From positions 51,203 through 98,651 of the forward strand of contig WELA01002286.1 in NCBI GenBank assembly GCA_009602735.1: 47,449 nucleotides of DNA, in the 5' to 3' direction. The notes below the pieces were generated by a model. The model did not search any database, was not told where the DNA came from, and worked only from the letters and a program-made list of their open reading frames with translations. The stretch is from Mesotaenium endlicherianum (lineage: Eukaryota). The first letter of the stretch is position 1. The number at the start of each line of letters is the position of its first letter. This document shows, piece by piece, positions 657 to 47,449 of the stretch. A program made the translations under genes and the position numbers.

Positions 657-2620
657 GGTTCTCCCTCCTCAACAGCTTGAGCTTCTTCTGACAGTGAGTC
701 AGAGCTAGACAATCTGTAATCACCTTAAAAGCTATACCATGTAAGTATGCTCTCCACTGTTTGAGCACATGAATGATAGCTAGCAGCTCTTTATCATGCA
801 CTGAGTAATTAATCTCCGCTGGATTAAATTTCATAGACTCGTACAAACCAGGTTGCTACTCCTGCCTTACCTTACCATCCTTTGTGGTTTTGTCAGCAAG
901 CTGCAACAAAATAGCAACCATGGCAAAGTCAGAGCCATCAGTAACCACCCCCACCGGTTTGCTGGGGTCATACACGGCTAGCACTGGGGCAGAACAAAGG
1001 GCATCTTTAAGGGTCTGGAAGGCAGCCTGCTGCACTTCCCCCCACACATACCCTATGTCTTTCTTAGTAAGGTCAGTCAGTTTACTGGCTTTTGTAGAAT
1101 AGTTCTCAATAAATCTCCTATAGTAGTTGGCCAACTCGAGGAAGGATCTAACTTCAGAGTCAGACTGTGGTACTGGCCAGTTGCTTATGGTCTGGACTTT
1201 CTTAGGATCCACACTGATGCCTACTGTACTGACAACGTGGCCTAAGAAGTCAATACTCTCCTTAAAGAAATCACACTTGCTCATATGAGCATATAAGTGA
1301 TTTCTTCTCAGAGTGTCCATGATTGTGTTAAGTGTTCAGCGAGCTGAGCTTCATCTTTATAGAAAATTGAAACATCATCCAAGAAAACTTGCTCAAACTT
1401 ATCCAAATAAGGTCCAAAAATGTCGTGCATAGCACCCATGAAGGTCGAAATAGCATTAGTCAGTCCAAATGGCATCACGTTGAACTCATTGTGTCCATAA
1501 CGTGTGCGAAAGGCAGTCTTGTGTTCTTCCGCCTCAGCAACTTTGATTTGATGATAACCACTCTTGAGATCTATCTTACTGAACACCTTAGCACCAGACA
1601 GGGTATCGAGCAAGTCCTCGATTTTGGGTAAAGCATACTTGTTGTTTACTATAATTTTGTTTAGAGCTCTGTAATCCACACACATCCGCATACTTCCATC
1701 CTTTTTCTTAACAAATAAGATGGGTGCGCCGTAAGGTGACATACTGGGGGAAATATAACCATTTTCTTCAAGCTCTGCAATCTGTGTTTCCAACTCCTCG
1801 CTCTCCACATAAGACAAGCCATTAGTGCGTTGCCTGGGTGGCTGACTCCAGGTAATGAATCTATCCTATCATCTTCTTCCCTCTTTGAGGGTAGTCCTAG
1901 AGGCATATTAGAAATATCCGTGTATTGAGCAACAATTTTTGCTGCAGTAGGGTGCTCCGGAGGGCTTACCTTTTTCTCCACCACTTCTTCAGGTTGAGGA
2001 GGTACCTCTCTTAGCACCAGACAGAACATTATGTCTTCCTTCTGGTTCCAGCTTTTGACGAACTCCATTGCATTCAGCAACTTGCATCCTTCTGGAAGCC
2101 TCTTCTATTCCTTCATTTGCCATCCATACAAGACAAGAGGAAGAGCACTGGTGGGTGCCAAGTTAGTTTGCCCATCACTGGCTCCTCTCACTTTAACTGT
2201 ACCTCTACTCCAACACACTTCAGCTTGATGTCTGTTAAGCCAGGACCTGCCTAGCACGAGATCATAAAAGCCAGTCTTGAGTATCTCAAATGTAAGCGAT
2301 TCAGTTAGAACTGCAATGCCAGAACCTAACTGGACCTCAAAAGGCTTGGTTATAATTTCTCCCGAGATACTTGAGGCATCTCCAAGGAATATTTTTCTAT
2401 TTCCGTGGGTGAGAGTATGCAGCCTTAGCCGCTTAACTAAGTTCTTATGGATAAAAGTATGTGACGCCCCTGCGTCAACAAATGCCCTCACCTTCCCGCC
2501 TCTAGTCATGCAGTGCAGTAGGATAGGAAGGACTGTCTTGTCCTGACTTTGGCATTGTTCTCTTGACTTAGCAAAGAAGTATTGGACATCAGGTGCAACA
2601 AGATCATCCAGAGCGTGCAC
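657..2620 (-). pseudogene. pol: B1 pol remnant (protease, RT, RNase H)
   Basis: Motifs [41 protein letters not shown] and YSVHDKELLAII are split across frames by stops and frameshifts. Confidence 0.9.
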
Positions 2621-8753: not shown

Positions 8754-8754
8754 G

Positions 8755-19847: not shown

Positions 19848-21322
19848 TTACTGACTTTTACTGTCTTTTAAAGACTGGTCCTTTCTCTTGACCTTGGGAA
19901 GGTGCTTGACAGGACACTGCTCTCTATAGTGGCCCAACTGTTGGCAATAGTAGCAAACAGATTTTGCTGAGGCTGGTCTCGGCTTAGTCCTACCACCACC
20001 TCTTCCATAGCCGCCTCGAGAGAAACCACCTCTACCTTTAGACTGTATAGCATTATACTCATACTCGTATTCCTCACCCTGATCATCCTCAGCCTGGTCT
20101 CCTTCACTTGCATTGTAGGAACCGTGGGGCTTTTTGACAATCTTAGACACCGAAGCATTACTCTGGCGCTTGTGATTCAACTGCTGCTGATCCCAGGCAT
20201 CAGCATCTTGCGTCAAGTCAGCCAATTTCTCATACTTCTTCTCAGCAAAATAACCAGAGACTTTGGAATTCAAGCCATACCTGAAGTATGCTACCCTATA
20301 CCGTTCGGGTAAGTCTGGCTGTTTCGTCATGTTGTCCTGGAAATTTTGAGCAAACTCAGCAACTGAAGTGGTCTGCTTCAGTGTAAGAAAGACCATCGCA
20401 TAGATAGCTTTCTCCTGCTGGTTGATGACATCAAACTTCTCATGCAGCTTCTTGACAAACTCTACCCACGTTAGGTTACCGAGTTGTAGAGCCTTACGCT
20501 CTCCTTTCCAGTATAGCCACCAGTCTGCGGCACTGCCTTTCAGTAGCGCACCAGTGTGCCTGACCTTCTCGTAATCTTGTAGCTCTGGGTAATTCTCCAG
20601 CCACTGCTCAACATTAGCGAGAAACTTGATCAGGTAATATTTCTTGTTTCCCTCAAGATTGTAGTCCTGGGGAGGTTTTGGCTTAGGCTTACTAGGCCCT
20701 CTGCCACCACCACCAGTGGTTTGGGAACCCAGTTGATCTCTGTCCCGCAGGAGAGACATTATGATTCTTTTGTCCTTCTGTTGGCTCTGATACATGGTCG
20801 CCATTTGCGACTGCATTTGAACGAACAATGCTCCCAAGTTTACACTCTGGGGTGGAAGTCTAGCAAATGCAACAACAGTAGTGGCATCCACTCGCTGAGT
20901 AGTATCCTCAACAGTTCCTTTTGCTCCTGCAGCAATTCCTGCCGCATCAGCCGGTCACAAATTTGACCTAGAGGCACGTTGAGTTTTACAGCAAGAGGTG
21001 CGTTGAGAACATTGGCCCTCGATGCCATAAATTCTTCGACGGTGCGCTCGTTCGCTGGCTGTCCTTCCCTCCGTTCTATATCTTCAGCGGCTTTGGCTGA
21101 CCGTTCAGCTTCTAATCTGACTCTCTCCTCCTCAGCCTGCTGTGTTGTGACTGCAGCAACAGCAGTTGCCTCATCTGCAGCCTCTCTAGCTGAAGTATCT
21201 GCGACTGCTTCTGAACAGGTACGGGTTCCCGCTACATGTCTTTCAGCCTTGTTTTTGACATTCTCGAAATCCTGGTTCTCCATATCTCGGGAATTGCTAG
21301 TTTGAGACCTTGTCCTTACCAT
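19848..21322 (-). pseudogene. gag: B2 gag (one frameshift near 20935)
   Basis: ORFs 20840-21322 and 19848-20891 with LLKGSAADWW and a CCHC knuckle. Confidence 0.9.
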
Positions 21323-28030: not shown

Positions 28031-28054
28031 CTTCTTGTGCTACCAAAGTGCCTA

Positions 28055-28066
28055 GCTCCGATACCA
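28055..28066 (-). promoter_or_regulatory. A2 primer-binding site
   Basis: TGGTATCGGAGC on the - strand. Confidence 0.93.
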
Positions 28067-28067
28067 C

Positions 28068-33166: not shown

Positions 33167-33203
33167 TTTGGTATCAGTGCTGGGCTATTTTGCATACTAT
33201 ATT

Positions 33204-34235
33204 ATGGAGTCGCAGCCGGCAGCTGGAGGAGGCGAACACGTCGAGCATGTTGAGAGTGCAGGGCGACAGGTAGCACCAACGATCAACAAAGAGCAACAAG
33301 AAATGCAAGCGATGCTAAGGCAAATGGCGAATGCAATTGGAGGAGAAGTCTACACACAGTTTCAAAAAAATATGCGCCAGGATGTGGAGAGAACGGTGCG
33401 AGTTGTTGTTGGGAATGCCGCTTCAACGAGTTCGACACCTGCACCTGTTGTACCACCAATTCATGTTCACCCAGTGGTGCAAGTAGTTGTTCCACCTACA
33501 TCGGGAGTGCGTGCGCCTAAGCGTGAAGTGTATACAGGAGAGCGTGGATCGCCGCCTGTTCATGAATGGATTTTTGGAATGAAGAAGATTGTGGAGTATT
33601 ATGCGCTCACGCCCGACAGGCAAGTCCCCTTTGTCATAACTTTGCTGCAAAAGAGAGCTGGAGCTTAGTACGAACGAGAAACGCAGCTGTCTCGAGTCCC
33701 TGCTATTGTTGATTAGCTATTTGAAGGCTTGAAGAGGCAATTTCAACATTTTGCACCCGAGGCTACCGCTCGAGATCTATTGGTGTGCCTTCGTCAACGA
33801 GGAAGCGTTCAGGAGTATGTTTTGCGATTCAACGAGCTGGTGCTTCAATGTCCATCCATGCACGAGTCGGAGGTGATGGACAAGTTCAAGAGGGGATTCA
33901 AGCCAACTGTGGCCAAGGAAGTGGCGCTCAAGGACCCTACCAATCTTGGAGAAACGATGGCATTGGCAACAAGGGTCGCCGCAGTGGGATTTAGTCAGAG
34001 GCAGTGGGGCAGCCACAACTTTGGAGGATATCGACACTTTGGATCTCAGGCGCCAAGCACGAGTGTTCAAGGTCCAGTACCTATGGAGTTGGGACTTGTC
34101 CAGAACCAGTGCAGGCAACAGAATTATGAGCCAAGAGGACCCTGCTATAATTGCGGCAAGCTTGAAAATATGGCTCGAGACTGTCATGTGAAAGCGAAGC
34201 ACCCTCAAGAGCAGGAAAAAGGAGGACGCCAATAA
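33204..34235 (+). pseudogene. gag: C2 gag (internal stop at 33666)
   Basis: LRQRGSVQEY, GPVPMELG and the degenerate knuckle CYNCGKLENMARDC. Confidence 0.88.
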
Positions 34236-34246
34236 GTCGTTTTGGG

Positions 34247-36624
34247 GTGTCTACTTGCCGGAAGATGAGAACTCACAAAGAGGTTATCTCCACAAGCCTG
34301 CCGAGAAGCAAAGGACGAGAAGTTGACAAGCCTATCATCGTGGAAAGAGTAGTCGACGGCAACAAGGGGAAGTGTATGGTCGACAGTGGCGCAACTGCAA
34401 ACTTTGTGCACAAGAAGCTGGTGAAAGAGTGGCGAATCCTTGTGCAGAAGCATTATGAGCCTAAAGAGGCAATAATGGCGAATGGGCAAGGACTCAAGTG
34501 CGGTGCACCTACGGAAGCTATTCGCGTGGAAGTAGCGGGGCACCAGAGTAAGGTAGTTATGGAGCAGGCAGAGTTGGGTCACCATGAGGTGATATTGGGC
34601 CGACCATGGCTGAGGAAAGCCAACCCTCAAGTGCACTGGAGCACAGGAGAAGTGAAAGTCGAAGGGCGTGATGGGTGAGTGGAGACAGCGAAACACGTGG
34701 AGGTAGATACGACCACAAGTACTGTCTTCTGTTGAGCCTGCAAGTTAAGAAGCTATGCAGGGCGAATCAGGTGAAGGAGATGTACCTTGTTTTGGTGGCC
34801 CTGGCGAGGTCATTAGATGGAGCAAGCGTGAATCCTAAGGGCCTGCGCAAATGTACATCGCCGGAGGAGCAAGTAGTGGTGTCCGATCCCCTTGCTCCAA
34901 AGAAGCAGAGCCCAACTGCTCAAGCGAAGAAGCCTGCTGAGATGCCTGCCCAAATTAAGGCGCTGTTGGAGGAATTCAAGTGCGTTCTTCCTGAGGAGGT
35001 ACCTGCAGGATCACCTCCACAAAGAGCTATGGAGCACAAGATCGAGTTGGAACCAAGGAGCGAGCCACCTATGAGACCCGCCTATCGACCATCGTTTGCG
35101 GAGTTGGATGAGTTGAAGAAGAAGCTGACGAAGTTATTGGAGAGGGGATTCATCCGACTCAGCGATTTTCCATTTGCAACGGCAGTCTTATTTGTGAAGA
35201 AGGACGATGGAACTATGAGAACGTGTGTCGACTACCAAGCACTCAACAAGATCACTATCAAGAACAAGTACCCACTTCCACAAGTGGACGAGTTGAGTAA
35301 GAGGCTTGTCGGGGCGAAGTATTTCTTGAAGATCGATTTGAGGAGTGGCTATCACCTGGTACGAAATGCGAAAGGAGCCGTTTAGATACTGCTTCCAGGA
35401 CTTGCTATGGTTTATTCGAGTTCACGGTCATGCCTTTTGGGCTGACTAATGCACCTGCTACATTCGTGGGACTCATGAACAATATCTTCAGAGCCTATTT
35501 GGACCAGTTTGCGGTGGTATTTTCGGACGACATCCTGATCTATTTGAAGACCTTAGAAGCGCATGTGGAGCATCTGAGGAAGGTGTGGGAGGTCTTGAGA
35601 GATAAAAAACTATATGGGATGATGAGCAAGTGCGACATCTGTCTCAAGGAAGTAATGTTTCTTGGACACATAGTGGGAGCTGAAGTAGTCAAGGTGGAGC
35701 AGAAGAAGGTGCAAGCAGTCAGAGATTGGCCGGTACCTGCTGATATTCATCAACTCAGGATCTTCCTTGGCATGGCAAAATATTATCGACGTTTCATTGA
35801 AGAATTTGCCAAGGTGTGTGCACTGCTCACGGACATGTTAAAGAAGCAGGAGAAGTGGCTATGGATTGACAAGGAGCAGCAAGCTTTCGAGAAGATTAAG
35901 GTGTTGTTGACAAAGGCACCTGTGTTGGCAATTGCCAATCCAGAGCTTCCTTTCACCATCATTACGGACGCATCAAATTTGGCAGTGGGAGCCATTCTTC
36001 TCCAAGACCAGGGCAAAGGATTGCAGCCTACGGCATACGAGAGCAAGAAATTGAGTCCTGCTGAGCAGAATTATGCAGCACACGAGCAGGAAATGTTGGC
36101 TATTATCCAGACTTTGAGGATTTGGCGATGTTTTGCGGACAGCCGGAAGGTGTTCATCAAGACCGACCACAAGAGCTTAGAGAAGTTTATGACGCAGCCA
36201 ACATTGACACCAAGACAAGCAACGTGGATGGAGTTTTTGCAACAGTTCGACCACAAGATTGAGTACTTATTTGGGAAGATCAACCCTGCAGACGCTTTAT
36301 CCAAGAGGTGTGACCTGCAGCTATCTGAGTTATCAAGGAGAGTATGGACTTCAAGCAGAAGCTTAAGAGAGTTCATGAGAAGGATCATGAATTTGCAGAT
36401 GGTGGAGCAGCTGAGTTCAACTCAAGTATGCTGAAGAAGTACGGCATATTGTATTATGGTGATTCCAATAAGGTGGTGGTCCGTGACATCAAGGAGCTAC
36501 GAGACTTACTACATGCGTAGCATCATAATTGCTTATATGCTAGACACTTTGGAAGAGAGAAGACGGCAATCGTGCTGAAGCGGGAGTATTATTGGAGAGA
36601 CATGGACATTGACATCGAGGAGTG
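34247..36624 (+). pseudogene. pol: C2 pol remnant (protease, RT, RNase H, start of integrase)
   Basis: [20 protein letters not shown] and TDASN. Ends within the integrase Zn-binding region (HFGREKT...YYWRDMDIDIEECV). Confidence 0.9.
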
Positions 36625-37339
36625 TGTAAGATCTTAGGTTTATAAAGTGCATTTTTGAGTTTTTGAAAATATTTCTAGATTGTTTAGTAGTGTAGAATGC
36701 ATTTTTGTGGTCATTTTGATAGAAAGTTCATCGAATTTGGTGAAGTATTGAGAGAGTTATGGATTTCCAAAGTTTAATTAGTTTTGAGGTGAGCTCGACC
36801 ATCGGATTGACCGACAGCGTCGAGCGATCTGGCCCGTTAAAGTGAACTCGAACCTTCACGTAAGTTTGGCTGACGTGGAGTGCCGACTAGGTTGATTTAC
36901 CTAGAAGTTTCGGCTTAGCCTAGCGCGCCTACGACATAATATTCCAATATAGTCGATGCATGTATGTGGACGTCAGTTCGACCCAACACGTCAGATGAGA
37001 CTGATCTGGTCTACTCACGAATATTCTAGAAGGGACGATTTGACAAACACTTAGAAAATTCCGTAGCTTTCTCCTAGAGTGGAGCACTTAGGCATAAAAC
37101 TATTAATAGGCATAACTTCTTCATTTCTTATCAATTTTGACTTCTGTAAATTTCCACGGGTTTGTAACGACGAGGTCTTTCATCCTATACCATTTGTGAG
37201 CAGTTTCTTGCTACTCAAAATGTTTAGTTATTTTCCTAAGCTTTCTTAGTGATATGGCGCTGCACTCATTAATATGATTGCAACTAGTTTCTTTCCTCGT
37301 GAGTTACTACGCTTCCACTAGGGCAATCTGCCCCTGTCA
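36625..37339 (+). repeat. C2 3' LTR
   Basis: Diverged direct repeat of 32412-33166, followed by the TSD. Confidence 0.88.
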
Positions 37340-37991
37340 CAAGCCAAGAGTTTATGCAACTTGACGGCATATTGAAAACAACGAATTCTTGAGATTTTTA
37401 TGTCTTGTGATTTAAATATCTTGTTGTCACGACTTGAAACAAGTTTCAAACTTTGGCCACTTAACGAGCTTCACGCAAATTTAATTTCTTGGAGTTGGTT
37501 CACGACAACTTTAGGATTGTCAAATAATCTCCGCGATGTACCTTATTTCCTTCCATTTTAAATTTTGTTGGTAATTATATTTTGACCGAGAAACACTTGA
37601 CTAACTTTGACAATTGTACATTCTGAATTGTGCACATGCAACCCTCTTACTTTTGAGCTAATGTATCGCTTTGGGCTTACCACAGATATAGCACATCGTG
37701 AACGACCACCAATAACATCTTCAAAAACTTATTTAGACTTCAATTCATACCTTCACGTTTTCAAATCAATAACTTCTTACAAGTTTGATCGTGTTGCAAG
37801 TTGGTGACTAACTTGGGTTGTGGAAGTTTGGTTGATAGTGGAAATTAGAGTTTAAGCGCTTTAAAAGGTACGCAAGAAAATTGCAATTCAAGTGGCCGAT
37901 CTCAAGCGCCTTGCCGCGCCTTAAGAGCCGGGAAAATAATAGATTGATACAAAAAGTTACACGTTAAACATCTGCCGTTTTGAACTGTGAC

Positions 37992-38518
37992 TGTGAAAGA
38001 GATTCACAAAGCTCTTTCTGGATACCTCAGCGACGGGCGTCCTACCCTTTCCAACTGCTTGTCATACCCGACTTCTCTGCCCCGCCAACCGAAGCTGGGT
38101 ACACGTACATTCGCGTCACTCGCTCGCGGCACTGCGCGACACAGTTTTATTCCATCTGCAGAATGCGCTCGATTAAGCTCGAATAGTATCATTCTTCGTG
38201 ATTGTTTGTGATACCTGTCGTGCCTAACAGTGTCGGTCCCTCGGCACGTGCGTAGCCTTCTAGCACGTGTGCCTTCGGCCTGGTTGATGTGTCGGTGGCC
38301 CTCCTCACGAGTGGCAGACATGGTTGATTGACCTTTGCACGTGTGTCGGTGACAAGCCTTACCAGGGTTAACCCATCCCTGGGTTCTTGAACTTGCACCA
38401 TGCAGCCTTGACCAACACTTTGGGTGACGTTCTCTGCCACCCGGCTCTCACCATCTGCTTATCCTAAGACTTTAGCAGAAAATTTAAAAATACTTGCCTT
38501 GCCTAAATTCCTCTTACA
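37992..38518 (-). repeat. Probable 3' LTR of element D
   Basis: Starts TGTAAGAG directly after a PPT, has AATAAA at 38146-38151 (-) and a candidate end CTCTTTCACA. No second copy is in the window, so the distal boundary is tentative. Confidence 0.55.
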
Positions 38519-38565
38519 CCCCTTCCTTTCAGCTGAGGCGTCCCTGCCTTTCCTGCTGAAAGCTA

Positions 38566-41460
38566 TTATTTTTCAACGCTGCGGCTAGGGGTTTTAGGAA
38601 GGCAATCAGGACATTCCCATCGTCCTGCCATAATTTCTTCCTCGCCAATGCAGAAAGTGTGCCAACGGGCACCACACTTATCGCAAATTACCATTGCTTC
38701 TTGATCGTCCAGCACTTTGCAGCTGGCACAAGGCGTGGCTGGCACCAATTCCTCGGGCACAACCCTAACTGTGAGATCAATATTCGGCAAATGGCATAGC
38801 GAGCAATTCTGCACGTGGTCTCTCAGGGTTTTACCATCAGAACCTTCCAGTTCTAACGCACCATTGTCAAACGCATGTTTCACGCGCAAGATCACTGCAC
38901 CTGAACTGGTGTCGATGGTGGTCTTGGTTTGGCGCTTACGGTAAACAAAATCTCCTTCTTGAATCCGCGTCATCTGCAGGCGGTAGCTCCCGTCTCGCGT
39001 CCTGGCGTAACGTTGCGTATCTCTTTTCTGTGCAATTTTCAGATTGTCTAGTGCAGCCGGTATCATGCGCTCAAATAACGCCTTACGGCGCACCATCACT
39101 TTTAACAGTTCATCAGGGCTGTCCAGGTCTTGCACCTGTTCAATCTCCTGCTTAATGCTGCTGGGCACTACTGGACTTCTGCCAAACAGTATCTGATATG
39201 GCGAGTAATTTGCCAAGGCAGCCTGCTTGCTAAATCTGTAACCCATAACCAGCCATGGCAGGGCTAGATCCCTGTCACGCTTGTCATGCTCAAGGCAAAA
39301 CTTGCGCAAAGCAGACTTAATGGTTTGCACCATCCTTTTTGCCAGACCAGCTGCTTGCGGATGATCTCTAGACGTAGTGCGATGATCGATGAAGCATCTG
39401 TCCAAGAGTTTCTGAAAAGACCCTTGGAACTCAGACCCTTGGTCTGTCAGCATTTCTGCTGGAGCTCCATGACGCACAATCACACCATTGAGGAACGCTT
39501 TCGCGGTCCCTAGACTCTCCTTAGCAGTCAGAGGGACAACCTCTATCCACTTAGAGAAATGCTCAATCATGACCATGATATACTTGTTACCTCGCTTAGA
39601 CAGCGGTAGATCACCAGCGAGATCGCAGCTCCAACAGTAGCCTAGGCCCATGATTGGCAAAGGTTGCAAGTGTGGATGTTGCTGTGTAAATCCAGCCTTG
39701 ACGCGATCACAGCTTTGGCAGGCCTTGATCACATCTCCACACTGCTCCTTCATGCCCCTCCACCAGTAAGACAGCTCCAAAAGACTATATGTCTTCTTGA
39801 CACCATAGTGTCCAGTGTTCTCGTGCATTTCCAGCACAAGGGCTCGTCTCCTGATGGGTTCTGGCACTAACTCCTCCTGACCAGTCTCTTCAATTTTGAA
39901 GAGGTTGTTACGTTTCCAGCAAAACCTTTTAGCTCGATGGTTTACCTGGTCCTTCTCCTTCACTAATAGTCCTTCCAAGTGAGTTCCCGTCTTCAGCCAG
40001 TGCATAGTAGCTTGATCTTTCCAGATCTCTGGACTGAACAGGGGTAGAGGCTCAGCTTCACCTGATGCTACTATTCCAGCCATTTCGGCTAGGCAAGCCA
40101 CCAACTCTGCTGGGCTGCTCGGGTCGTCGTCCTCTCGAGCTCCTGTTCTGTCGTCTGAAGATGGGTCTGGGTTCCTGCTGAGTCCATCGGCGTCGTTGTT
40201 GAGCACTCCTGCTCTGTGCACCACCGTCATTTGGTACTCTTGCAGCTTAAGAGCCCAGCGAGCCAACTTACCAGTGAGGTCTCCATTCTTCATCAGCCAT
40301 AGTAATGGTGAGTGATCCGTGATCAGTGTGAAGGGTCTACCCCACAGATACTCTTTGAAGTGTGTGATCGCCCAAACCACTGCCAGCAGCTCTCCTTCAT
40401 AGGATGAGTAGTTGCTCTCCGCTCGATTGTTAGAGCGTGAGGCAAAGGCAATGACATACTCCTCTCTAGGGCTTGTGGCCTGAATGAGTACTGCGCCAAT
40501 TCCCAGACGACTCCAGTCAGTGTGCAGATTGAACGGCTTGGAGTAGTCAAGCGTTCGCAAGACTGGGGCTGTTACCAGCCGCTCCTTAAGCTCGTTCATG
40601 GCTTTCTCCTGAGCTTCTGTCCACACAAAAGGTACATCCTTTTTCAGGATTTCCGTCAAGGGTTTAGCAATTCTGCTATAATCCTTCACAAACTTACGAT
40701 AGTATCCGCTTAGCCCTAACAGAGCTTTCAGCTTAGACACATTTGCAAGTGCAGGTATCTTGTAAATAGCCTCGGTCTTCACAACCTGAGGGGACATAGC
40801 ATTGTTCCCAATCTCATGTCCTAGGTAAGGCACGTGTGCCTCAAAGAATCTGCACTTCCCAAGATGCAGCTTCATCTGGAATTTCTCCAGGCGCTGGAAC
40901 ACTTGTTCCAAGTGCTCGAGGTGCTCCTCTATGGACTTGCTGAATACTACCACATCGTCAATGTATGGCTTAGCAAAATCCAGCCCCTCCAGCACTTTAT
41001 TTTTAGTCCTCTGAAATATGGCTGGGGAATTTTTCAGCCTAAATGGCATTACTGTCCATTGCCAAAGTTCCCTTTGAGCCCAGAAAGCAGTCTTACCTCG
41101 ATCTTCTGTTTTCACAGGGATTTGGTTGAAGCCTTGGCGCAGATCGATAATGCTGAACACCTTTCCGGTGGTGGCAATTGCAAAGATCCTTTCCGGTGTA
41201 GGCATCACATAGCTATCTGGCTCCGTGTAGAGATTCAGTCGCCTGTAATCTCCACACATACGAGTGGCAGTGTAATTGCCGGCCTCGTCCTTTTTAGCGA
41301 CTACTACTGTAGGAGCCCCATGTACTGAGGTAGATTTTTCAATCATGCGGAGCTTATGCAGCTCTTCACAAGTTTTCTCCACACAGTCCCATTCTGTCTG
41401 ACTGAGCTTATGCGGCCCTAGTTTGACTGGGTTATCAGTAGTTAGTGTGATCTCACACAC
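38566..41460 (-). CDS. pol: RT, RNase H, integrase and PHD part of the D polyprotein (open, probably inactive)
   Basis: RMCGDYRRLN, YIDD, HTDWS, HENTGH...CQSC, WSCDL and LTDQG. The integrase catalytic Glu position reads K (GLAKRMVQ). Confidence 0.93.
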   Translation of the reverse strand: MCEITLTTDNPVKLGPHKLSQTEWDCVEKTCEELHKLRMIEKSTSVHGAPTVVVAKKDEAGNYTATRMCGDYRRLNLYTEPDSYVMPTPERIFAIATTGKVFSIIDLRQGFNQIPVKTEDRGKTAFWAQRELWQWTVMPFRLKNSPAIFQRTKNKVLEGLDFAKPYIDDVVVFSKSIEEHLEHLEQVFQRLEKFQMKLHLGKCRFFEAHVPYLGHEIGNNAMSPQVVKTEAIYKIPALANVSKLKALLGLSGYYRKFVKDYSRIAKPLTEILKKDVPFVWTEAQEKAMNELKERLVTAPVLRTLDYSKPFNLHTDWSRLGIGAVLIQATSPREEYVIAFASRSNNRAESNYSSYEGELLAVVWAITHFKEYLWGRPFTLITDHSPLLWLMKNGDLTGKLARWALKLQEYQMTVVHRAGVLNNDADGLSRNPDPSSDDRTGAREDDDPSSPAELVACLAEMAGIVASGEAEPLPLFSPEIWKDQATMHWLKTGTHLEGLLVKEKDQVNHRAKRFCWKRNNLFKIEETGQEELVPEPIRRRALVLEMHENTGHYGVKKTYSLLELSYWWRGMKEQCGDVIKACQSCDRVKAGFTQQHPHLQPLPIMGLGYCWSCDLAGDLPLSKRGNKYIMVMIEHFSKWIEVVPLTAKESLGTAKAFLNGVIVRHGAPAEMLTDQGSEFQGSFQKLLDRCFIDHRTTSRDHPQAAGLAKRMVQTIKSALRKFCLEHDKRDRDLALPWLVMGYRFSKQAALANYSPYQILFGRSPVVPSSIKQEIEQVQDLDSPDELLKVMVRRKALFERMIPAALDNLKIAQKRDTQRYARTRDGSYRLQMTRIQEGDFVYRKRQTKTTIDTSSGAVILRVKHAFDNGALELEGSDGKTLRDHVQNCSLCHLPNIDLTVRVVPEELVPATPCASCKVLDDQEAMVICDKCGARWHTFCIGEEEIMAGRWECPDCLPKTPSRSVEK
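38602..38730 (-). other. PHD finger at the integrase C-terminus
   Basis: C4HC3 spacing with W two residues before the last Cys pair: CASC...MVICDKCGARWHTFC...GRWECPDC. Confidence 0.92.
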
Positions 41461-43700
41461 ACTGGCAGTGGTTCTACCAATCTCCTCCTTAGTGAAAGCA
41501 AATACCTTGCGNCACCTCGCGGTGTTTCTTCAGCAACCTTTCTACTCGTGCTCTCTGCTGGGCTGAGACCATTTTCCCAATGGCAAAAGTCTCAGTTTCA
41601 GGTTGCTTCTCCCCAACAAAGGCATCCAGTAGTTGCTACTCCTTAGGTGCAGGTGGGGGCTTCCCGCCCTCATCGTGGCCCTCAGGCTTTTCTGCCCGAT
41701 TCTGGCTCTCAGGCTTTTCTGCCTGATTCTTAGGAGGTGGGGTAGCATGCTTTGCAGCTTGCTCCTCCGTTGCCATAAGTTCGGCAGCCTGTTTCTTAGG
41801 CTTTTTACCTTTCCCAATGACGCGTCGCCTCTCCTGCGGTGAGGGGTATGTGAGGCGCCTCCGGATGGGCTGCCTCAGGAACATTTCCTCGTCGACTCCA
41901 GTCCAACTGGTCCCGGTTCCTCCTTCTTCACGTGGCCAAGGTTGGTTTGCCATTGGAAAACCTGCGGGATCTACCCTAGGGCTGATCGCCCAGCCCCATT
42001 CTCGCTCAATAATAGCCATGCGGGCAACAGTCGTGCCATACTCCTCCCTTGCGGGTGGTGTGACCATCCATGCCTGCGCCAATGTTTGCGGCCTTTGAGG
42101 TGCTGCTAGTTGTGCGAGAAAGGCATCATCTGCTGCGGTCAAGCGACTGATGGTGTTTCTGAGATCCATCAGTTCCCATCCTGGGATTGCAGGTATCATG
42201 GGAGCAGGTTCTTCCGACCTCTGTATCCTAAGATCTGATAGTTGCAACAAAGGCGTGTTCATGCCTGGCGGAACACTAATACCCAATGCCATTGCCCTGC
42301 AAACCAAACCGTCCTCTCCCTCTCTCTGCAGAATATCCCGCAGAGGCGGAGGAGGTGGGGCTGTGGTTCCTCGCGGAACGCCCTCTCTCTGAGCGTTCCC
42401 CTTATGCTTCAAATATCGCTTTAGTATCCTCCTAAAAGATGCCTTACCCTCACGGGCCACCTTCCTTGGTCTGCTTGCGCGACTTTCGGGCTTTCCTTGT
42501 GCTGTCTTTACTTTAGCAGTGCAGGCAGTCACCTCCTGCCGTTGCGGCAGTTTTGCGGTTGACTTGGGTTCCGCCACTAGAAGACTGGCAGAAGGAGAAT
42601 TGGATGTTGGCGACCTTAATTCTTCATAAAGGTCTGCCGGGCTTGGCCCCATCAGGTGGTCAACCACCTAGTCGTCTGTCCTGAGCTCCTGTAAGTCCAG
42701 CAGATCCAACTATGGCGTGGGAAAACGTGGAACTTTTTCCCTAATGTCTCCTTTGTTGTTGAGTGATGGCGACTCCAACTCCGAGAGGCCTTGCATCTCT
42801 GCATCCTCTTCCTCCTCCGGCTTCTCTATTCCAGGAGGAGGCAATTCTTCATCCCCTCCTGTGTTGAGCCTCGCCATGTTGATGATGGCTGACTGTAGAG
42901 CGAGAGCTGCTTTCGCCACTTTCTCTTCCTTGAGTCGAGGGGCGTCTGCTTCCAGCAACTGCGCCATGATTTGCCTGGTGATTGACTCAGCTGTGCTGCC
43001 AACTGCGTCTTGTGGTTGCCCTTTGGCCTCTGGCCCTGGGCTCATCAGAGCAAGTGTGGCGGGCAATCTCTTGGCCGTCTCCTTCTTGTGTTCTTCAAAA
43101 ATCACCTCCAGGCAAATGGTCTTTCCAGACCCTCCATAATTTCCTGAATTTTGACTGCATTCTTCGGCCCATTCGTCAATATTGCACTGGCGTTCTTCAT
43201 ATCTTGATGTTACCGCGTCTGGGGATGGGCTCCCAAAGACCTGGTCTGGGGCCATTTTTCGTAACTCAAAACTGGTATCTTCCTCCCATTCCGGCATCCT
43301 CCCAAATATTTATTTGGCGGGAGCGTTCTGCAAATGCTGGGACCTCCTGTGATTTGCTTACTACAGCGCTCACCGAAGGGTTTGCTGCACCAGTTGCCTG
43401 GTTGTCCATGGTTACGTCTTCTCGCAGCCTCCGCAACTCTCTTTCCAGAGGGTAGTGTAGAGTCGCCATCCGATTGTCAATTTGCGTCAATAAGTCTTGA
43501 CACCTGGTCAGCTCCACCACTCTGGTTTCTCCGAGTGTTTCATCTTGGTCAGCCTCAGCTGCGTCTCTTTCACCACCATATTCTTTTTGTCGCTGATACG
43601 CTTCCCTGATAGCTCTCTGATCAGAGGTTGGCACCACATGGACTCCAATCGTTACCGGCCTCGGCCTGGGCATAGGCTTGTCAGAGAACGTCACCTGTTG
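41461..43700 (-). pseudogene. About 740-codon linker of unknown function between DNMT and RT
   Basis: ORFs 42710-43297 and 41636-42667 share a frame, separated by TAG stops. The frame continues into typical pre-RT text (RVERLLKKHREV/FAFTKEEIG). Confidence 0.7.
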
Positions 43701-45180
43701 CCAAGTCATAATCGTCTCTACCAACCATGTCATGGAGTGATGCCCACTCATGTTGCCGAATATCTTCCCAGCGTTGTCCTGTCCCACCATTGCAACAATT
43801 TCTTGTGCAATGGAGTTGGATACCCCCAGGCACCTTCCCTTCTCTTCAGTTGTCGGCTCTCTCCACTGAGCTTCTCTGTCGTGCACATCTTTGACCATTC
43901 CTGGTCCTCCATTCACGAAAGCGCGTGATCCTGGGTATGCTGTGAAGGTGGGCAGCACCACCCTGGGCCGGCCTGGCTCGTTGACGACGTACTGTGGGTA
44001 GGAATCCCTCCTGATCACTGGCTTGGTTTCCACCATCAGTGCTTCTCCCACAGATACTGCCGTTGGCGTGCGCCGCGTAATCTCCTCCATCTCCGTCAGG
44101 ATTTCAATGGACATGCCGTTGGTCCAGAATAGTCTGGCCCGGTGTGAGAGTCCTCCGTGCCTGGCGTTGTTGGCCAATACATGATGACCCAGGGTAGAGT
44201 CGAAGACCAGCCATGGATCTCCTGGCTTCATCTGGTTGTAATCCATCCCTGGATGTACATTCTCAATCACAAATACTGGTGGGTAGAGATGCTGGCGTTC
44301 CCGCAGCATACTGATGATCTTCACCATCCTTCCCCAGTGTTGTGCTCGCGGGTCATTGAATCTCCTCCTGTTCCCAGCTTGCGAGAAAGGTTAACAAGGG
44401 AATCCCGCAAAAATCCAGTCAATCGTGTAACCATACAGGTCCTCAGACTTCACATCGAGAATGTTTTCTCCAGCAAGACGCACCACACTAGTGGGCACCA
44501 ACGCCTTAAAATGGTACATTTGCCGCATCTGACTCATGATGTAGTGATTTGAGTTATTATATATTAGTATGCATATATTTTAATGTTTTCAAATATATTT
44601 GGAGTAGTATTGTGTGGATTCAAGTGTGAATAGGTACTCTAGTAACTTGGTTCATGTCCTTTGAACCTTCCAAGGCATTTTCGAAGTTAGAGGAAAGACC
44701 TAGAAGAACTCCATGTGGCAAAAGTCAGATGTGCCATTTTTAGGTCAAAAGAACATGTGTACATTATTCTAGAAAGAGGTGGCAAGTTTTGGGATGTGTT
44801 GGGTGCCAACACATCAACATACACCTTCCTAGAAATTACTTATGTAGCAAGTATATAAACAAGAGCTAGAACATAGAAAGACATTGGAGAATCACTCTTG
44901 TACTTGCCAAAATCCAGAAATATATTAGCTTTCAAGAAGCCATCTCTCTTTCAAGAAGCTACCACTTGTGTTCAAAGATCCTTGTCTTGAATAGATAAAC
45001 TATTCTGTTTTACTAAGTACTTTATCTATCTGTTTCACTACACATGACCTCCTCAAATGCTGTAAAAACATTCTCATCATTGTCCACATACAGCACTTTG
45101 GATACCTGGATACCTCGTTGAATCAGTGCAATGGTTCCAATACCAAGTCCGGCGAAGAATTCCAGCACTACTACTCCTCT
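43700..45180 (-). pseudogene. C5 cytosine DNA methyltransferase domain within the D polyprotein, split by a solo LTR
   Basis: Motif I VLEFFAGLG (45142-45168), motif IV IDWIFAGFPC*PFSQAG (PC at 44394-44399), VI IENV (44256-44264), VIII HRARLFWTN (44118-44144), IX-like REPTTEEKGRCLG and X-like GKIFGN (43752-43769). Confidence 0.92.
44540..45042 (+). mobile_element. Solo LTR of family A
   Basis: 503 bp, TGTAGTGA...TCACTACA, TSD CATGA (44535-44539, 45043-45047). Confidence 0.97.
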
Positions 45181-45888
45181 CCTGCGAAAAGGATCTTCCG
45201 TCCTCACAATGCCTTGCGGCAATGGGTCTACTCCAGGCATCAAATTGGCAGCAGTCTTAACTGGATAAGGAATTGGCAGCAGCTCTTGCGGGCCACGATC
45301 CCTGTTACTCACAGCTTCTAGTTGCTCCATAATCCAAGGTTGCCAAACCAAGGGAGTCGGCATGTTGACGCTGGTGTAAATCTTCTCTTTGCGTTGCATG
45401 ATGAGGTCATAATGGTCTGGATACTGGTTATTCACATAGCAGTCTAGCAGTCCGTAGTTTGCCTCTCCCGAGCAAACCATTTTTATAGGAATTTCTCCTG
45501 TCGGCTGCCGATCTGTCGACTGGTAAGTCACCCTCTGCTTCTGCAGGTCGATGACCATACCCCGGGGAGTCAGAGCGTCTGTCCCCAATAGAACATCATA
45601 GTTTTCTGCCTCTGTCACCGTACACTCTATGAACAGTGACGCTCCCTCAGGTTTTCCCAAGTTTACTGTGATTTCCACAGGCTTGCGGGTGATTCCACAA
45701 GACTTTGAAATCTGCCCAGATGCAGTCCTCAACTGGAAAGGACTTTCTTTCAGGTCCCTTGCCGTCAATCCCAGAGCTTTCACAGCTCGCTTTCCTAAAA
45801 TTACTGGCGATGCGCCAGTGTCCAATAGGATATAGGGAGCGGCCCAGTTGTTAAACGTCAAAACTCCATCCTTGTTCTGCACTCTCAC
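45181..45888 (-). pseudogene. Aspartic protease of element D, directly fused to the DNMT
   Basis: ILLDTGAS...YDVLLGTD lies in the same ORF as DNMT motif I. Confidence 0.9.
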
Positions 45889-47307
45889 AGTGCTGAAATT
45901 AGTAGGCAGCGAAGCGCTGTTCGCGCCTTCCTCAGCTAGGTCTAGCTGCTGTCCGGCTTCCTCAATCGTGAAAGGATATGTAAGACGCAGATCAGCGAGT
46001 GAAAGACAAGGAATGTGCTAAATCCGGTGTTCCACCAGAGCCTTCTGCTTTTCCAGCGAAAAACTAAATGTCTTGCGTGGCCCAGGCTTGGCTTGTCGTA
46101 GCTGCGCAATCTCGTTCTCATCGAGAGTGATCCAAAAGGTCTGAGGAAGCTTCCCAACATTCCTTGGAACCAGACGGTCATGATCTGCGCGCCTCGCAGC
46201 CGTTGCAGCCACGGCCTTCTCAGGCGTCAGCTTCTCGCCTTTGCAAACGGTCTTTTTGGCCACATCTGCATCATAATAGACATTAGGCACATTTAGTCTT
46301 GCAAATTGAGCTTTCAACTCTGCAATCTCTGCACTCATAGCATCATACTTCTGATTACCCTTCCGGTTACTAGAGTTATCTCTCTCCCGTTTCTTACCCT
46401 TATCCGCCTCTTTCGTGGCAGCATTAGCCCATGGTGGTTTCAGATTTGGGTTCTTGGACCAACACTCATCTTCTGAGTGTCCCTTTTTGCTGCAATGTGC
46501 GCATACCTGCGCCGTGCTAGCAGACAATTGCTTAGCATCCGGGTGCGGACAATATCTCTTCTGATGTCCTGATTTTCTGCAGTTCCAATAGCCCTTTGCT
46601 GTCTCAACAGTGTTGGTGTGCTTAGCAAACCTATTGAAAGACCCGTTCTTTTTCTTAAACTAAAAATTAGAGCTATTGGCCTTGGGCTGAAAGGATTCCT
46701 CCCTTCTCTCAGGAGCCATAAGCGTCCTGGAAGCCTCCTTGTACCAGACTTTACCTTCCTCGACATTGCGTGCTATTTCAGCAGCCTCGTCGATGTTCCA
46801 GTCGATTCCGCGTTTCACAAATAGGTGCGGCCTGACCTCCCGATCTGTGTCTTTACCCAAACACAATAAGAATTTGTCAGCCACAATCCTAGGCTCATAG
46901 ATTCCTGCCTTCTTGGCAGGGTCTACCAATCTGGATTTGACCTCCATCACTGTCTCGTTCTTCTGACAAACAAAATGCACATAGCGATGCACTTTAAGAC
47001 TGCGATCCTTTGGGAATGTTGCTTCAAGCAACTTAAAGAAACGGCGCAGACAGTGCTCAGAGTCTAACTGGTCATCCCCAGCCTCCATATCCCTACGGCA
47101 ACTAGCCAACGCTTGCGCATGGCTTGCTTCCGTGGTGACACTATCACCATGCTGCCCTGTAAAAGGTGCAGCTCTGCGTGTTACTTGTTCCTGAGCATTA
47201 GCAATCTTTTCAGACAATTTTGCACATACTTTACGCAATTCTGCGACAGATCCAGCATCATCATCTCGAGTAGCCGCTCGCTGCTGACCCTCGGTGAGTT
47301 GCTTCAT
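45889..47307 (-). pseudogene. gag: Gag of element D with two zinc knuckles, in frame with the protease
   Basis: One frame with TAG stops at 46660 and 46018. Knuckles are (Y)WNCRKSGHQKRYC and CAHCSKKGHSEDEC. Confidence 0.8.
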
Positions 47308-47449
47308 TGTAAGGTCATAGGTTTATGAAGTGCATTTTTGAGTATCATGAAAGTATGTTTTGATTGTATAGTAGTGTAGAGTGCATTTTTGTGGTCATTT
47401 TGATATAAAGTTCATCGAATTTGGTGAAGTATTGAGAGAGTTACGGATT
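47308..47449 (+). repeat. Start of another family C LTR interrupting D gag; runs off the window
   Basis: TGTAAGGTCATAGGTTTATGAAGTGCATTTTTG matches the LTR starts at 32412 and 36625. Confidence 0.9.

Follow-up and report, generated by a model that had tools for sequence, protein, structure and literature searches.

KnitGypsy-Dnmt3 of Klebsormidium nitens was reported by de Mendoza et al. in 2018 (PMC5890265), and a DIRS-like repeat layout was described for it. In the same paper, de novo CG methylation was observed in a test system, and self-methylation by retrotransposon DNMTs was put forward as a hypothesis. A preprint (10.64898/2026.05.21.726589) names this element the 'Gypsy-DNMT3' of streptophytes, and its authors call the DNMT acquisition of a second group, the EpiLTRs, distinct from that of Gypsy-DNMT3. 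Gypsy elements with PHD fingers have likewise been published. Gypsy-7a_cRei of Chlamydomonas reinhardtii is described as a Gypsy polyprotein with a PHD finger, for which an effect on the insertion site is proposed (preprint 10.1101/2022.06.16.496473). The reader domain of the chromovirus integrase is thought to steer integration.

Here, we analyzed 47,449 nucleotides of DNA from Mesotaenium endlicherianum (GCA_009602735.1, contig WELA01002286.1, positions 51,203 to 98,651 of the forward strand), hereafter the window. The window contains nested LTR elements. On its minus strand, positions 38566-47307 hold a Ty3/Gypsy LTR retrotransposon copy that is decayed and 5′-truncated. By sequence comparison, the element is assigned to the lineage of KnitGypsy-Dnmt3, with the green-plant lineage as host group. 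Overall, we consider it likely that the locus is a dead Gypsy-DNMT3 copy from a family that carries both a DNMT and a PHD finger, with live relatives that would work as proposed in the Discussion.

Results

Domain Architecture

From 47307 to 38566, the minus strand encodes a Gag-like region, a protease, a C5 DNA methyltransferase, a linker of about 710 residues, reverse transcriptase (RT), RNase H (RH), integrase (INT) and a PHD finger. The coding frame is carried by four pieces, 47307-45043 (755 codons), 44534-43291 (414 codons), 43309-41515 (598 codons) and 41508-38566 (981 codons), with 2, 1, 3 and 0 internal stops, respectively. In the same pieces, the other two minus frames contain 15-69 stops, and the plus frames contain 6-64. 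The four pieces sum to about 2,750 codons. This agrees in length with the single ancestral ORF of at least about 2700 codons proposed in the initial annotation, but a probable programmed TAG would divide it into two in-frame ORFs. The common frame of Gag, protease and DNMT, which was also proposed, exists only once a 503-bp solo LTR and one 5-bp TCATG are removed.

The Gag-like region (45829-47307), whose N-terminus is absent, was assigned from its translation and from relatives with zf-CCHC upstream of the protease. It contains one canonical CCHC knuckle (46462-46503) and one decayed knuckle (46549-46581). No gag match was detected for it in Pfam, and its similarity to the Gag part of P0040 was weak (24% over 237 residues). 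The aspartic protease (45571-45828; D-T-G at 45808-45828) matched Pfam gag-asp_proteas (E 7e-8) and RVP_2 (E 5e-6). The RT and RNase H (40303-41508; YIDD at 40942-40965) matched RVT_1 (E 3e-26) and RT_RNaseH (E 3.5e-36), and the integrase (39350-39850), with an H2C2 zinc finger and a DDE core, matched Integrase_H2C2 (E 5.8e-15) and rve (E 8.6e-11).

The linker (41639-43742) is rich in E, A, P and R, and is open save for two private TAGs. The piece that bears it has 3 stops in 598 codons, versus 21 and 29 in the other two minus frames. Multiple copies of it are present in runs X1 and X2. No match to the linker was found in Pfam, in the 273 retrieved proteins, in the 80 loci or, with a 343-residue piece as the query, in the Atlas.

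Downstream of the coding part, a polypurine tract (38531-38519) is followed by a putative 3′ LTR (38518 to about 38215, TG...CA; minus strand); the 5′ LTR lies outside the window. Multi-copy cover and contig homology stop near 38215, and 37347-38068 is low-copy.

Methyltransferase and PHD Finger

The N-terminal part of the methyltransferase (45043-45174), with motif I FxGxG, was recognized by translation and alignment and lies in the frame of the protease. The C-terminal part (43743-44534) matched Pfam DNA_methylase (E 2.1e-12, 47.5 bits) when the stop in motif IV, a TAA directly after Pro-Cys (44393-44391), was read as X. The other motifs are ENV (44256-44270), RxR (44118-44144), motif IX (43821-43862) and a decayed motif X (43743-43763). 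The methyltransferase matched 386 library proteins at E ≤ 0.001. Against solved structures, the family profile matched DNMT3A/B/C with E 5.7e-23 to 1.5e-17 (DNMT3A best, E 5.7e-23), DRM-type chains with 3.6e-11 and HhaI with 7.6e-11. DNMT1 chains were absent from its 57 structure matches. The family enzyme is accordingly classified as DNMT3-like with DNMT3A/B as the best match, an assignment by ranking against solved structures and not by a reference-family tree. The RT tree and the methyltransferase tree were both made with FastTree only and are unrooted. The branch of the window methyltransferase is very long (2.57), which leaves the precise position of this enzyme in the tree uncertain.

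The PHD finger (38602-38730) is of the Cys4-His-Cys3 type and forms the C-terminus of the polyprotein; its ORF ends at TAA 38568-38566. It matched Pfam PHD with E 4.7e-5 and 23.8 bits, which is 0.2 bits short of the cut-off of 24. Two residues of the PPL loop of the family are missing, and all eight zinc ligands, invariant in the family alignment, are present. No Chromo match was found in the element by Pfam. Thus, the integrase ends in a complete PHD finger and not in a chromodomain, as initially annotated. In profile comparison, the family PHD profile matched CHD4, KMT2C/D, KDM5 and further PHD fingers. The profile therefore resembles fingers that read histone tails, and binding is predicted from this resemblance. 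The fingers of CHD4, KDM5A/B, PHF21A, AIRE, BAZ2A/B and UHRF1 are readers of the unmodified H3 tail. The same mark is read by the ADD domain, which guides DNMT3 in animals.

Decay, Insertion and Boundaries of the Window Copy

The window copy is dead; it cannot work because of the motif IV stop, an insertion and a frameshift. Its private defects are five stops, one frameshift, a solo LTR within the methyltransferase and truncation at 47308. Six premature stops were found (46662-46660, 46020-46018, 44393-44391, 42712-42710, 42670-42668 and 41638-41636; five TAG and one TAA). This is the number of point stops initially annotated, but the TAG at 41638-41636 is probably ancestral and not a product of decay. 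Two private TAGs (46662-46660 and 46020-46018) lie in the Gag-like region. The two in the linker (42712-42710 and 42670-42668) are replaced by a sense codon in nearly all other copies, among the matches listed. The frameshift lies in a two-frame overlap (43266-43310) of the ORFs 43266-44390 and 42710-43309. The overlap of these differing frames supports the frameshift placed earlier near 43290, and a 4-letter indel distinguishes one X1 contig at 43310.

The methyltransferase is split by a 503-bp solo LTR of a chromovirus family on the plus strand (44540-45042, TGTAG...CTACA; 44535-45047 with its flanks). It is flanked by a 5-bp target duplication, TCATG (44535-44539 and 45043-45047). Two LTR pairs of the window (8251-8753/14425-14930 and 21890-22396/28068-28570) match it with 97-98% identity. 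An X6 contig shows the empty site, with 44534 joined straight to 45043. This insertion was absent from the initial annotation.

The 5′ part of the element is removed by the start of a foreign LTR of 715 bp (family 'E', TG...CA), on the plus strand at 47308-47449. This stretch is 90% identical to 36625-36765, and in other copies of the E LTR the PBS-like TGGTATCGGAGC follows. Other copies of the element extend past 47307 with a different sequence, seen as loose ends of contigs. We considered 47308-47449 as the element's own LTR and rejected it, since it is an unrelated E-family LTR and the other copies continue upstream of 47307.

At the assembly join (41503-41521), a single N (41512) is accompanied by a 10-letter duplication that shifts the frame. 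The X5 and X6 contigs lack the 10 letters; the X1 and X2 contigs continue beyond 41511 as loose ends whose sequence matches 10 letters further along; and the alignment of relatives is unbroken across the N. Therefore, the 10-bp overlap annotated at the N is real. Cover in X5 and X6 is even over the whole element. In the poly-A RNA run X24, of which about 6/100 was sampled, the depth was 0-0.6 in bins wholly within the coding part.

Stop Codon at the ORF1-ORF2 Junction

Between the linker and RT, an in-frame TAG is followed by CAA CTA (41630-41638, minus strand). This agrees with the UAG-CAR-YYA read-through motif described in PMC3159437 and PMC5397192. The CARYYA context was found at only one of the six premature stops, the TAG at 41638-41636, with a chance of about 1 in 512. 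A homologous TAG is present in L002 (TAG CAG TTA), L061 and L064 (both TAG CAA CCC) and L066 (TAG CAA CCT); L002 is otherwise intact, and the other three are decayed. Given this shared TAG in one intact and three decayed relatives, we regard the stop as probably programmed and inherited from the ancestor. The element then probably had two in-frame ORFs, ORF1 (Gag-PR-DNMT-linker) and ORF2 (RT-RH-INT-PHD).

Alternatively, the junction TAG could be a sixth decay mutation in an ancestor with an uninterrupted ORF of about 2,750 codons. The junction has no stop in other members of the lineage (P0047, P0168, P0179 and P0198, and loci such as L015), so read-through is not universal in the lineage; and five of the six stops are TAG, hence a common decay product in this copy. 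No differing letter at this TAG was found among the matches listed, with four covering runs; an unlisted difference is still possible, and identity is not proven thereby. Among the same matches, however, the two neighboring TAGs differ in nearly all other copies, whereas the junction TAG does not. In X5, the codon immediately preceding it carries a silent change, while the TAG itself has no listed difference. Moreover, the start of many database proteins (about 1,040 aa long) lies just downstream of it. Together with the CARYYA context and the homologous TAG + CAR in L002, L061, L064 and L066, these observations make decay at this site an unlikely explanation.

Both Domains in Relatives

From the list of 386 matches, 24 proteins were scanned in Pfam. 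PHD was detected in 17 of them, and DNA_methylase together with PHD in nine. Among the 273 retrieved proteins, 38 have the order RT-DNMT-INT-PHD and four (P0164, P0179, P0240 and P0244) have the order of the window, DNMT-RT-INT-PHD; P0179 was confirmed by Pfam. Nine more are (PR-)DNMT-RT(-INT), with the PHD absent or the sequence truncated, and one is a DNMT-RT fragment. In the intact metagenome contig L002, ORF1 (1369 aa) encodes a protease and DNA_methylase (E 1.8e-13), and ORF2 (1047 aa), which shares its frame and is separated from it by one TAG, encodes RT, RH, INT and PHD (E 2.6e-10). Where metagenome loci extend 2 kb or more upstream of RT (n = 33), a methyltransferase match was upstream in 22 and downstream in none. 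That both halves come from one family is supported by individual polyproteins and by the intact L002, which carry both domains. On these comparisons, the pairing of DNMT and PHD is family-wide, and it is standard across a large family, part of which has been described. The pairing is dispensable, as the methyltransferase is retained in the Closterium/P0047 sub-clade, which lacks a PHD-like tail. Many relatives have a PHD finger and no detectable methyltransferase in the protein.

Discussion

In live relatives, ORF1 (Gag-PR-DNMT) is likely made in bulk, and ORF2 (RT-RH-INT-PHD) likely arises only when ribosomes read through the leaky UAG in its UAG-CAR-YYA context. The protease would then cleave the polyprotein. 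The PHD finger of the integrase likely tethers integration to particular chromatin, the role of the chromodomain in chromoviruses. De novo methylation of CG sites would be the task of the DNMT3-like enzyme, possibly with the new DNA copy as its target, as has been suggested for other retrotransposon DNMTs. Because the PHD and the DNMT are about 1,700 codons apart, with a protease in the polyprotein and a probable leaky stop between them, reader and writer are probably separate proteins of one element and not a single guided enzyme.

The initial annotation suggested a 'mobile epigenetic module'. Both halves do belong to one family, but nothing links the PHD to the enzyme and the window copy is dead. 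The idea is also less new, since Gypsy-DNMT3 (PMC5890265), Gypsy PHD fingers and EpiLTRs have already been published. In its strong form, the PHD would guide the methyltransferase itself, as ADD does, so that insertion and methylation occur in chromatin chosen by one reader. This fits a DNMT3-like enzyme with no reader domain of its own, a PHD profile that matches the unmodified-H3 readers named above (CHD4, KDM5A/B, PHF21A, AIRE, BAZ2A/B and UHRF1), and the order RT-RH-DNMT-INT-PHD of a sister lineage, which puts the enzyme beside the integrase-PHD. However, the intervening 1,700 codons comprise the linker, the probable stop, RT, RNase H and integrase, the polyprotein has its own protease, and each domain occurs without the other, the enzyme in one sub-clade and the finger in many relatives. 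Such guidance is thus quite improbable. A chimera of halves from different elements is extremely unlikely: LTR elements are nested throughout the window and the N with its duplication sits between the halves, but contigs of X5 (41420-41679) and X6 (41400-41956) bridge the N without the 10 extra letters, the relatives' alignment runs straight over it, single proteins and L002 share the domain order, the RT and methyltransferase trees place the window in one lineage, and X5 and X6 cover is even along the element.

The element can be compared with known systems. The catalytic domain of animal DNMT3A/3B is the best solved-structure match of the family profile. In contrast to these enzymes, the element has no ADD or PWWP beside the catalytic domain, and its sole reader-type domain is distant, on the integrase. 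The EpiLTRs of Cymbomonas and Euglena are likewise LTR elements with DNA methyltransferase(s) and a chromatin reader, but are described as having an adenine methyltransferase, a DNMT sister to DNMT4 and a chromodomain (10.64898/2026.05.21.726589). Chromoviruses, such as the young family at 8251-14930 of the window, also carry a chromatin reader at the integrase C-terminus; theirs is a chromodomain, and a clear Chromo match was found in this neighboring family. For Gypsy-7a_cRei, compared by description only, a methyltransferase is not described and the PHD is drawn between RNase H and integrase.

The 'pol' protein KAF8056149.1 of Scenedesmus sp. PABB004 (P0054) has the same domain set, with a related methyltransferase and a PHD after the integrase. 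In such RT-RH-DNMT-INT-PHD polyproteins, however, the methyltransferase lies between RNase H and integrase. They form one clade of the RT tree (43 rows, support 96), and all but one are opposite the window in the methyltransferase tree.

KnitGypsy-Dnmt3 and the window element are both Gypsy LTR elements whose polyprotein includes a DNMT3-type domain. KFL_009030040 of K. nitens (P0198) has the order of the window, PR-DNMT-RT-RH-INT, with 43% identity over RT-INT and 26-28% similarity in the PR and DNMT parts. It is on the window's side of the methyltransferase tree (support 98; FastTree, unrooted). The two differ in host, and in the window family an additional linker (about 700 residues) and a probable leaky stop precede RT. 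A PHD finger is unmentioned in the main text and three supplementary files of PMC5890265, figures aside. P0198 ends short of the PHD position, and its 75%-identical relative P0189 has the PHD.

Reading Frames and Domain Order of the Element

The Ty3/Gypsy copy lies on the minus strand (47307-38566), where stop-to-stop ORFs succeed one another from 47322 down to 38566. Four minus-strand coding pieces were delimited: 47307-45043 (755 codons, two internal stops in the coding frame), 44534-43291 (414 codons, one internal stop), 43309-41515 (598 codons, three internal stops) and 41508-38566 (981 codons, no internal stop). In the same pieces, 15-69 internal stops were counted in the other two minus frames and 6-64 in the plus frames. 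The openness of the coding frame is far beyond chance, and the total of about 2,750 codons agrees with the length of at least about 2,700 codons in the initial annotation.

Pfam matches to an aspartic protease, reverse transcriptase (RT), RNase H (RH), and the zinc finger and core of an integrase (INT) were found on one strand, in the protease - RT - RNase H - integrase order of Ty3/Gypsy Pol. The C-5 DNA_methylase profile matched with E 2.1e-12 (47.5 bits) when the stop in motif IV was read as X. No Pfam gag match was obtained in the element; its N-terminal region contains one canonical and one decayed CCHC knuckle and is weakly similar to the Gag part of a relative.

Lesions of the Copy

The largest lesion of the copy is absent from the first reading. 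A 503-bp solo LTR (44540-45042, TGTAG...CTACA), bordered by a 5-bp target duplication, splits the methyltransferase between motif I and motif IV. The window also contains two full, young chromovirus copies whose LTRs are 97-98% identical to this insert, and a contig of sequencing run X6 joins 44534 straight to 45043, without the solo LTR. When the LTR and one duplicate are removed, the frame is unbroken across the methyltransferase, and the domain is in frame with the protease inside the polyprotein. Thus, the single frame proposed for Gag, protease and methyltransferase is continuous, but only once the insert and one copy of the duplication are taken out.

The stops, the frameshift and the overlap at the N had been recognized before. 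The element contains six premature stops, of which five are TAG and one is TAA, and the reading frames place the single frameshift expected near 43290 at 43266-43310, where one contig of run X1 (n = 1) differs by a 4-letter indel. The single N at 41512 is accompanied by a 10-letter duplication. Contigs of runs X5 and X6 have 10 letters fewer there, beyond 41511 those of X1 and X2 continue with sequence matching a place 10 letters further along, and relatives align unbroken across the N; these alignments confirm the 10-bp overlap.

The catalytic residues are not preserved in the window: a stop directly follows the Pro-Cys of motif IV, and motifs IX and X are decayed. In the alignment, the relatives keep these residues, and the invariant columns include C47, E91, N92, R132 and R134. 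The copy is dead, and the catalytic failure is a property of this copy, not of the family.

Ends and Flanks

The 90% identity of 47308-47449 to 36625-36765 had suggested 47308-47449 and 36625-38518 as the LTR pair of the element. This reading was rejected, since the contig alignment places 36625-37339 and the sequence from 47308 onward in plus-strand LTRs of another family (family E). The plus-strand LTR of this family is 715 bp long and is followed in other copies by the PBS-like TGGTATCGGAGC. In other copies of the element, different and open sequence continues upstream of 47307. The present copy is therefore truncated at 47308, and the window does not include its 5' LTR, PBS or Gag start.

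On the 3' side, TG comes after a polypurine tract (38531-38519). The multi-copy cover and the contig homology end near 38215, from which we infer a 3' LTR of about 300 bp. Beyond it, 37347-38068 is low-copy. The whole stretch between the element and a copy of family E (37340-38214) is low-copy and AT-rich (GC about 37%); it is probably host flank, because X1 covers it by only one exact contig of 938 nt.

Family E occurs at 32412-37339 (plus), 30872-31623 (minus) and 47308-47449 (plus), and one of its LTRs truncates the element described here. The LTRs of the copy at 32412-37339 are only 80% alike, the PBS-like TGGTATCAG follows its 5' LTR, and its internal part matches RT and RNase H only.

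The Methyltransferase Profile Is DNMT3-like

As to the kind of METHYLTRANSFERASE, the window piece alone matched only bacterial enzymes among the solved structures, and weakly (HaeIII, E 0.002). The bacterial-type assignment suggested by this single-sequence search was overturned by a profile of 18 family members searched against the same kind of target. The profile ranked DNMT3A/B/C best (E 5.7e-23 to 1.5e-17), followed by DRM-type chains (3.6e-11) and HhaI (7.6e-11), with DNMT2 far lower; no DNMT1 chain was among its 57 matches to solved structures. On this profile ranking against solved structures, the domain is classified as DNMT3-type, in agreement with the published "Gypsy-DNMT3" of streptophytes.

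When the methyltransferase piece was compared with longer proteins only, no match was obtained. The exhaustive search succeeded: 386 proteins reached E <= 0.001, 131 of them E <= 1e-10, and many of the 386 are polyproteins of 1,000-3,200 residues. For both Gypsy families in the window, the closest relatives with a named source, at about 50% identity, belong to liverworts, Klebsormidium, Closterium and further green plants; the host is most likely a streptophyte.

The PHD Finger at the Integrase C-terminus

The Cys4-His-Cys3 ligands of the PHD finger have the canonical spacing, and none of the eight columns varies among 15 sequences, the window included. The Pfam score of the window finger (23.8 bits) is 0.2 below the curated cut-off of 24, and the relatives pass it with 25.9-49.5 bits. 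Aligned with 14 relatives, the window finger is missing two residues of the conserved PPL loop of the family. No Chromo match was found by Pfam in the 987-aa ORF, and the neighbouring chromovirus family has one with E 3.4e-12. As first described, the integrase therefore ends in a PHD finger with intact zinc ligands instead of a chromodomain.

The family profile of the finger matched solved fingers of CHD4 (E 3.5e-27), KMT2C/D, KDM5A/B and Lid, PHF12, ATXR5 and WSTF, and further those of DPF3, KAT6A, PHF21A, BAZ2A/B, AIRE and UHRF1. ING, BPTF and TAF3 fingers are absent among the 60 matches listed. Most of the fingers matched read the unmodified H3 tail rather than H3K4me3. By profile similarity, the finger of the element looks like one of these unmodified-tail readers.

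Across the lineage as a whole, the finger is a shared trait, whether or not the enzyme is present. P0198, a database protein of Klebsormidium nitens, ends before the place of the finger, and its 75%-identical relative P0189 carries one.

The Two Halves Belong to One Family

If the copy were a chimera, the parts bearing the methyltransferase and the PHD finger would belong to different families. Among 24 of the methyltransferase matches analyzed with Pfam (limit E 0.001), PHD was detected in 17 and DNA_methylase together with PHD in nine. All 273 retrieved proteins were then tallied with the family HMM, with RT, integrase and protease queries and with a PHD pattern. The order RT-DNMT-INT-PHD was found in 38 proteins, RT-DNMT-INT in 13, and DNMT-RT-INT-PHD, PR-DNMT-RT-INT (PR, protease) and DNMT-RT-INT in four each; 63 proteins had the methyltransferase alone, 31 RT-INT-PHD and 61 RT-INT, besides other classes. 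Absences in this tally are weak, because many entries are fragments. The database protein P0179 has the domain order of the window with both DNMT and PHD detected by Pfam.

A scan of metagenome contigs with the RT-INT-PHD alignment yielded 80 loci; the same scan with P0179 alone yielded no relative. In the 33 loci that extend 2 kb or more upstream of the first RT match, the methyltransferase was found upstream in 22, downstream in none, and not at all in 11. One locus, L002, is intact: its ORF1 (1369 aa) contains protease and DNA_methylase (E 1.8e-13), and its ORF2 (1047 aa) contains RT, RNase H, integrase and PHD (E 2.6e-10). X5 and X6 cover the whole element evenly, at about 9-20, and all parts are highly multi-copy in X1. 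Thus, as the initial annotation had assumed, both halves form one family: single proteins and L002 carry both domains in the order of the window, the cover is even, and the copy is not a chimera.

L002 occupies positions 976-8229 (plus) of a 9.3-kb contig, with Gag-PR-DNMT and then RT-RH-INT-PHD in frame. Since no direct repeats of 40 bp or more were found on this contig, the LTRs of L002 do not lie on it.

Two Sister Lineages

Unrooted trees of RT (147 rows) and of the methyltransferase (161 rows) were built with FastTree, without bootstraps. In the RT tree, one clade (support 96) unites the 43 proteins whose enzyme lies between RNase H and integrase. The window belongs to a neighbouring group of 68 rows (support 92), together with 10 of the 13 rows of the tree in which the enzyme is ahead of RT. 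In the methyltransferase tree, the 98-supported side with the window holds all 22 enzyme-ahead rows, a further 22 that have the enzyme only, and a single row of the other type. The window branch in this tree is very long (2.57), as expected of a dead copy, so the exact place of its methyltransferase is unsure. The pairing of DNMT3 and PHD is the rule across the two sister lineages, not a one-off.

Proteins of the sister lineage range from P0008 to P0158 in our list, and P0053 among them also matches G-patch. In a Closterium-related sub-clade (P0047/P0155, P0215 and P0099), the methyltransferase ahead of RT is kept, and the C-terminal tails are without a PHD-like cysteine pattern.

The Stop Codon at the Junction and the Linker

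The initial annotation had assumed one ancestral ORF and listed six point stops. One stop differs from the others. The two ORFs of L002 share a frame, with a single TAG between them, and the window has a TAG at the homologous place (41638-41636), about 300 nt upstream of the RT match. TAGs are placed as in L002 in the metagenome loci L061, L064 and L066 (300-327 nt from the RT match in L002 and these three) and, by alignment, in L057 and L059; other sub-families are without it. The junction contexts are TAG CAA CTA in the window, TAG CAG TTA in L002, TAG CAA CCC in L061 and L064, and TAG CAA CCT in L066. UAG-CAR-YYA is the efficient read-through consensus of tobacco mosaic virus and plants (PMC3159437, PMC5397192). 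Of the six premature stops, the junction TAG alone stands in such a context, and the downstream ORF is in frame with it once the 10-letter assembly duplication is set aside.

In the contigs of four runs aligned to 41400-42760, nearly all other copies have a sense codon at two neighbouring TAGs. The junction TAG is covered by contigs with no difference listed, although the lack of a listed difference does not prove identity; in X5, the preceding codon carries a silent change. Many database proteins of about 1,040 residues begin just downstream of the junction place, which is what a gene caller gives if a stop stood there. Members fused without a stop also exist (P0047, P0168, P0179 and P0198, and loci such as L015).

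From the place and contexts of the stop in relatives, the contig comparison and the protein starts, it is quite likely that the ancestor of the copy had an ORF Gag-PR-DNMT-linker, connected by read-through to a second ORF in the same frame, RT-RH-INT-PHD. The ancestral coding region would be in frame over its whole length, as proposed, but it was probably two ORFs with a conserved TAG between them; likewise, all six stops are present, but the one at the junction is probably programmed.

Between motif X and the junction stop lies a linker of about 710 residues (41639-43742, minus), rich in E, A, P and R. It is open and multi-copy. No relative of the linker was found in Pfam, the 273 proteins or the 80 loci, and a 343-residue open piece of it had no usable Atlas match. 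L002 has about 55 residues at this place, and the long linker is the clearest difference between the family in the window and its kin.

Decay, Transcription and Neighbouring Elements

In the comparison with X1 over 36625-47449, the copy has A/T where other copies have G/C at 255 places, and the reverse at 116. CpG in the element is depleted to 0.56-0.66 of expectation. The A/T bias, the CpG depletion and the TAG form of five of the six stops fit C-to-T decay of methylated DNA by deamination, although the whole window shows the same CpG depletion.

From the poly-A RNA run X24, which has the species label of X1 and of which about 6 in 100 were read, 264 reads aligned. Their cover is concentrated on the LTRs of other families, and bins wholly on the coding part of the element have a depth of 0-0.6. 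This is weak evidence that the family is silent in this sample.

The young chromovirus family, from which the solo LTR in the methyltransferase derives, has two full copies, at 8251-14930 (plus) and 21890-28570 (minus). Its 503-bp LTRs are 97-98% alike, its ORFs for gag (429 aa) and for PR-RT-RH-INT-SH3-Chromo (1230 aa) are intact, and X24 reads pile up on its LTR. Another long segment occurs twice, about 17 kb apart, at 657-7196 and 17733-21960 (76-100% identity; repeat families D1, D3-D6, D8-D12 and D19), with Gypsy gag and RT matches in the ORFs 19848..20954 and 1308..1865, and may be another nested or duplicated element.

Discussion

Beyond the observed anatomy, family-wide pairing, DNMT3-like and PHD profiles and conserved stop context, a course of events can be proposed. 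Gag-PR-DNMT would be made in bulk and RT-RH-INT-PHD by rare read-through, and the protease of the element would cleave the polyprotein. The PHD finger may tether the integrase to H3 tails, in the role of the chromodomain in chromoviruses. The enzyme may carry out de novo CG methylation, possibly on the new copy, as proposed in PMC5890265.

A stronger version would make this large and old Gypsy lineage of the green plants the carrier of a portable stand-in for the animal DNMT3 system, with the ORF1 enzyme in Gag-like excess and an H3K4me0-type PHD finger added to the integrase by read-through, so that new copies land in, and mark, H3K4me-free chromatin. We consider this version unlikely. If true, the element would impose its own silencing, or its own camouflage, as it inserts. 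No evidence was found for the finger guiding the enzyme: the two are far apart, are probably separate products, and there are relatives with only the finger as well as relatives with only the enzyme.

Retrotransposons with chromatin writers and readers show mobile DNA adapting to or exploiting host silencing. With the enzyme upstream of a probable leaky stop, as in part of the lineage, it would be made in far larger amounts than integrase-PHD. If the stop and the H3 reader hold, they constrain how such elements could use methylation and provide natural reader and writer domains of compact size for further work; L002 would be a good source of working domains for tests. The copy itself adds no new kind of element, and the surrounding work gives testable points in the pairing, the leaky stop and the H3 reader.

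The kind of element is known. A PHD finger has been described in Gypsy-7a_cRei of Chlamydomonas (preprint 10.1101/2022.06.16.496473), general remarks on PHD fingers in Gypsy elements appear in PMC6673714, and a 2026 preprint (10.64898/2026.05.21.726589) reports LTR elements joining methyltransferases with a chromodomain. In the article texts searched, we found no description of a DNMT3-plus-PHD Gypsy element as such. The order RT-RH-DNMT-INT-PHD of the sister lineage, which includes the "pol" of Scenedesmus sp. PABB004, was likewise not described in the literature examined.

The nearest described system is KnitGypsy-Dnmt3 of K. nitens, reported by de Mendoza et al. 2018 (PMC5890265) with a DIRS-like A-coding-B-A-B repeat layout. 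Its protein KFL_009030040 (P0198) has the order PR-DNMT-RT-RH-INT and shares with the window element 43% identity over RT-INT and 26-28% over protease and methyltransferase (26% for DNMT). The two fall on the same 98-supported side of the methyltransferase tree, whereas in the RT tree P0198 lies in a neighbouring small clade, apart from the window. Compared with the known Gypsy-DNMT3 elements and PHD-bearing Gypsy elements, the additions made here are modest: a probable read-through stop that places the enzyme upstream, and a long private linker.
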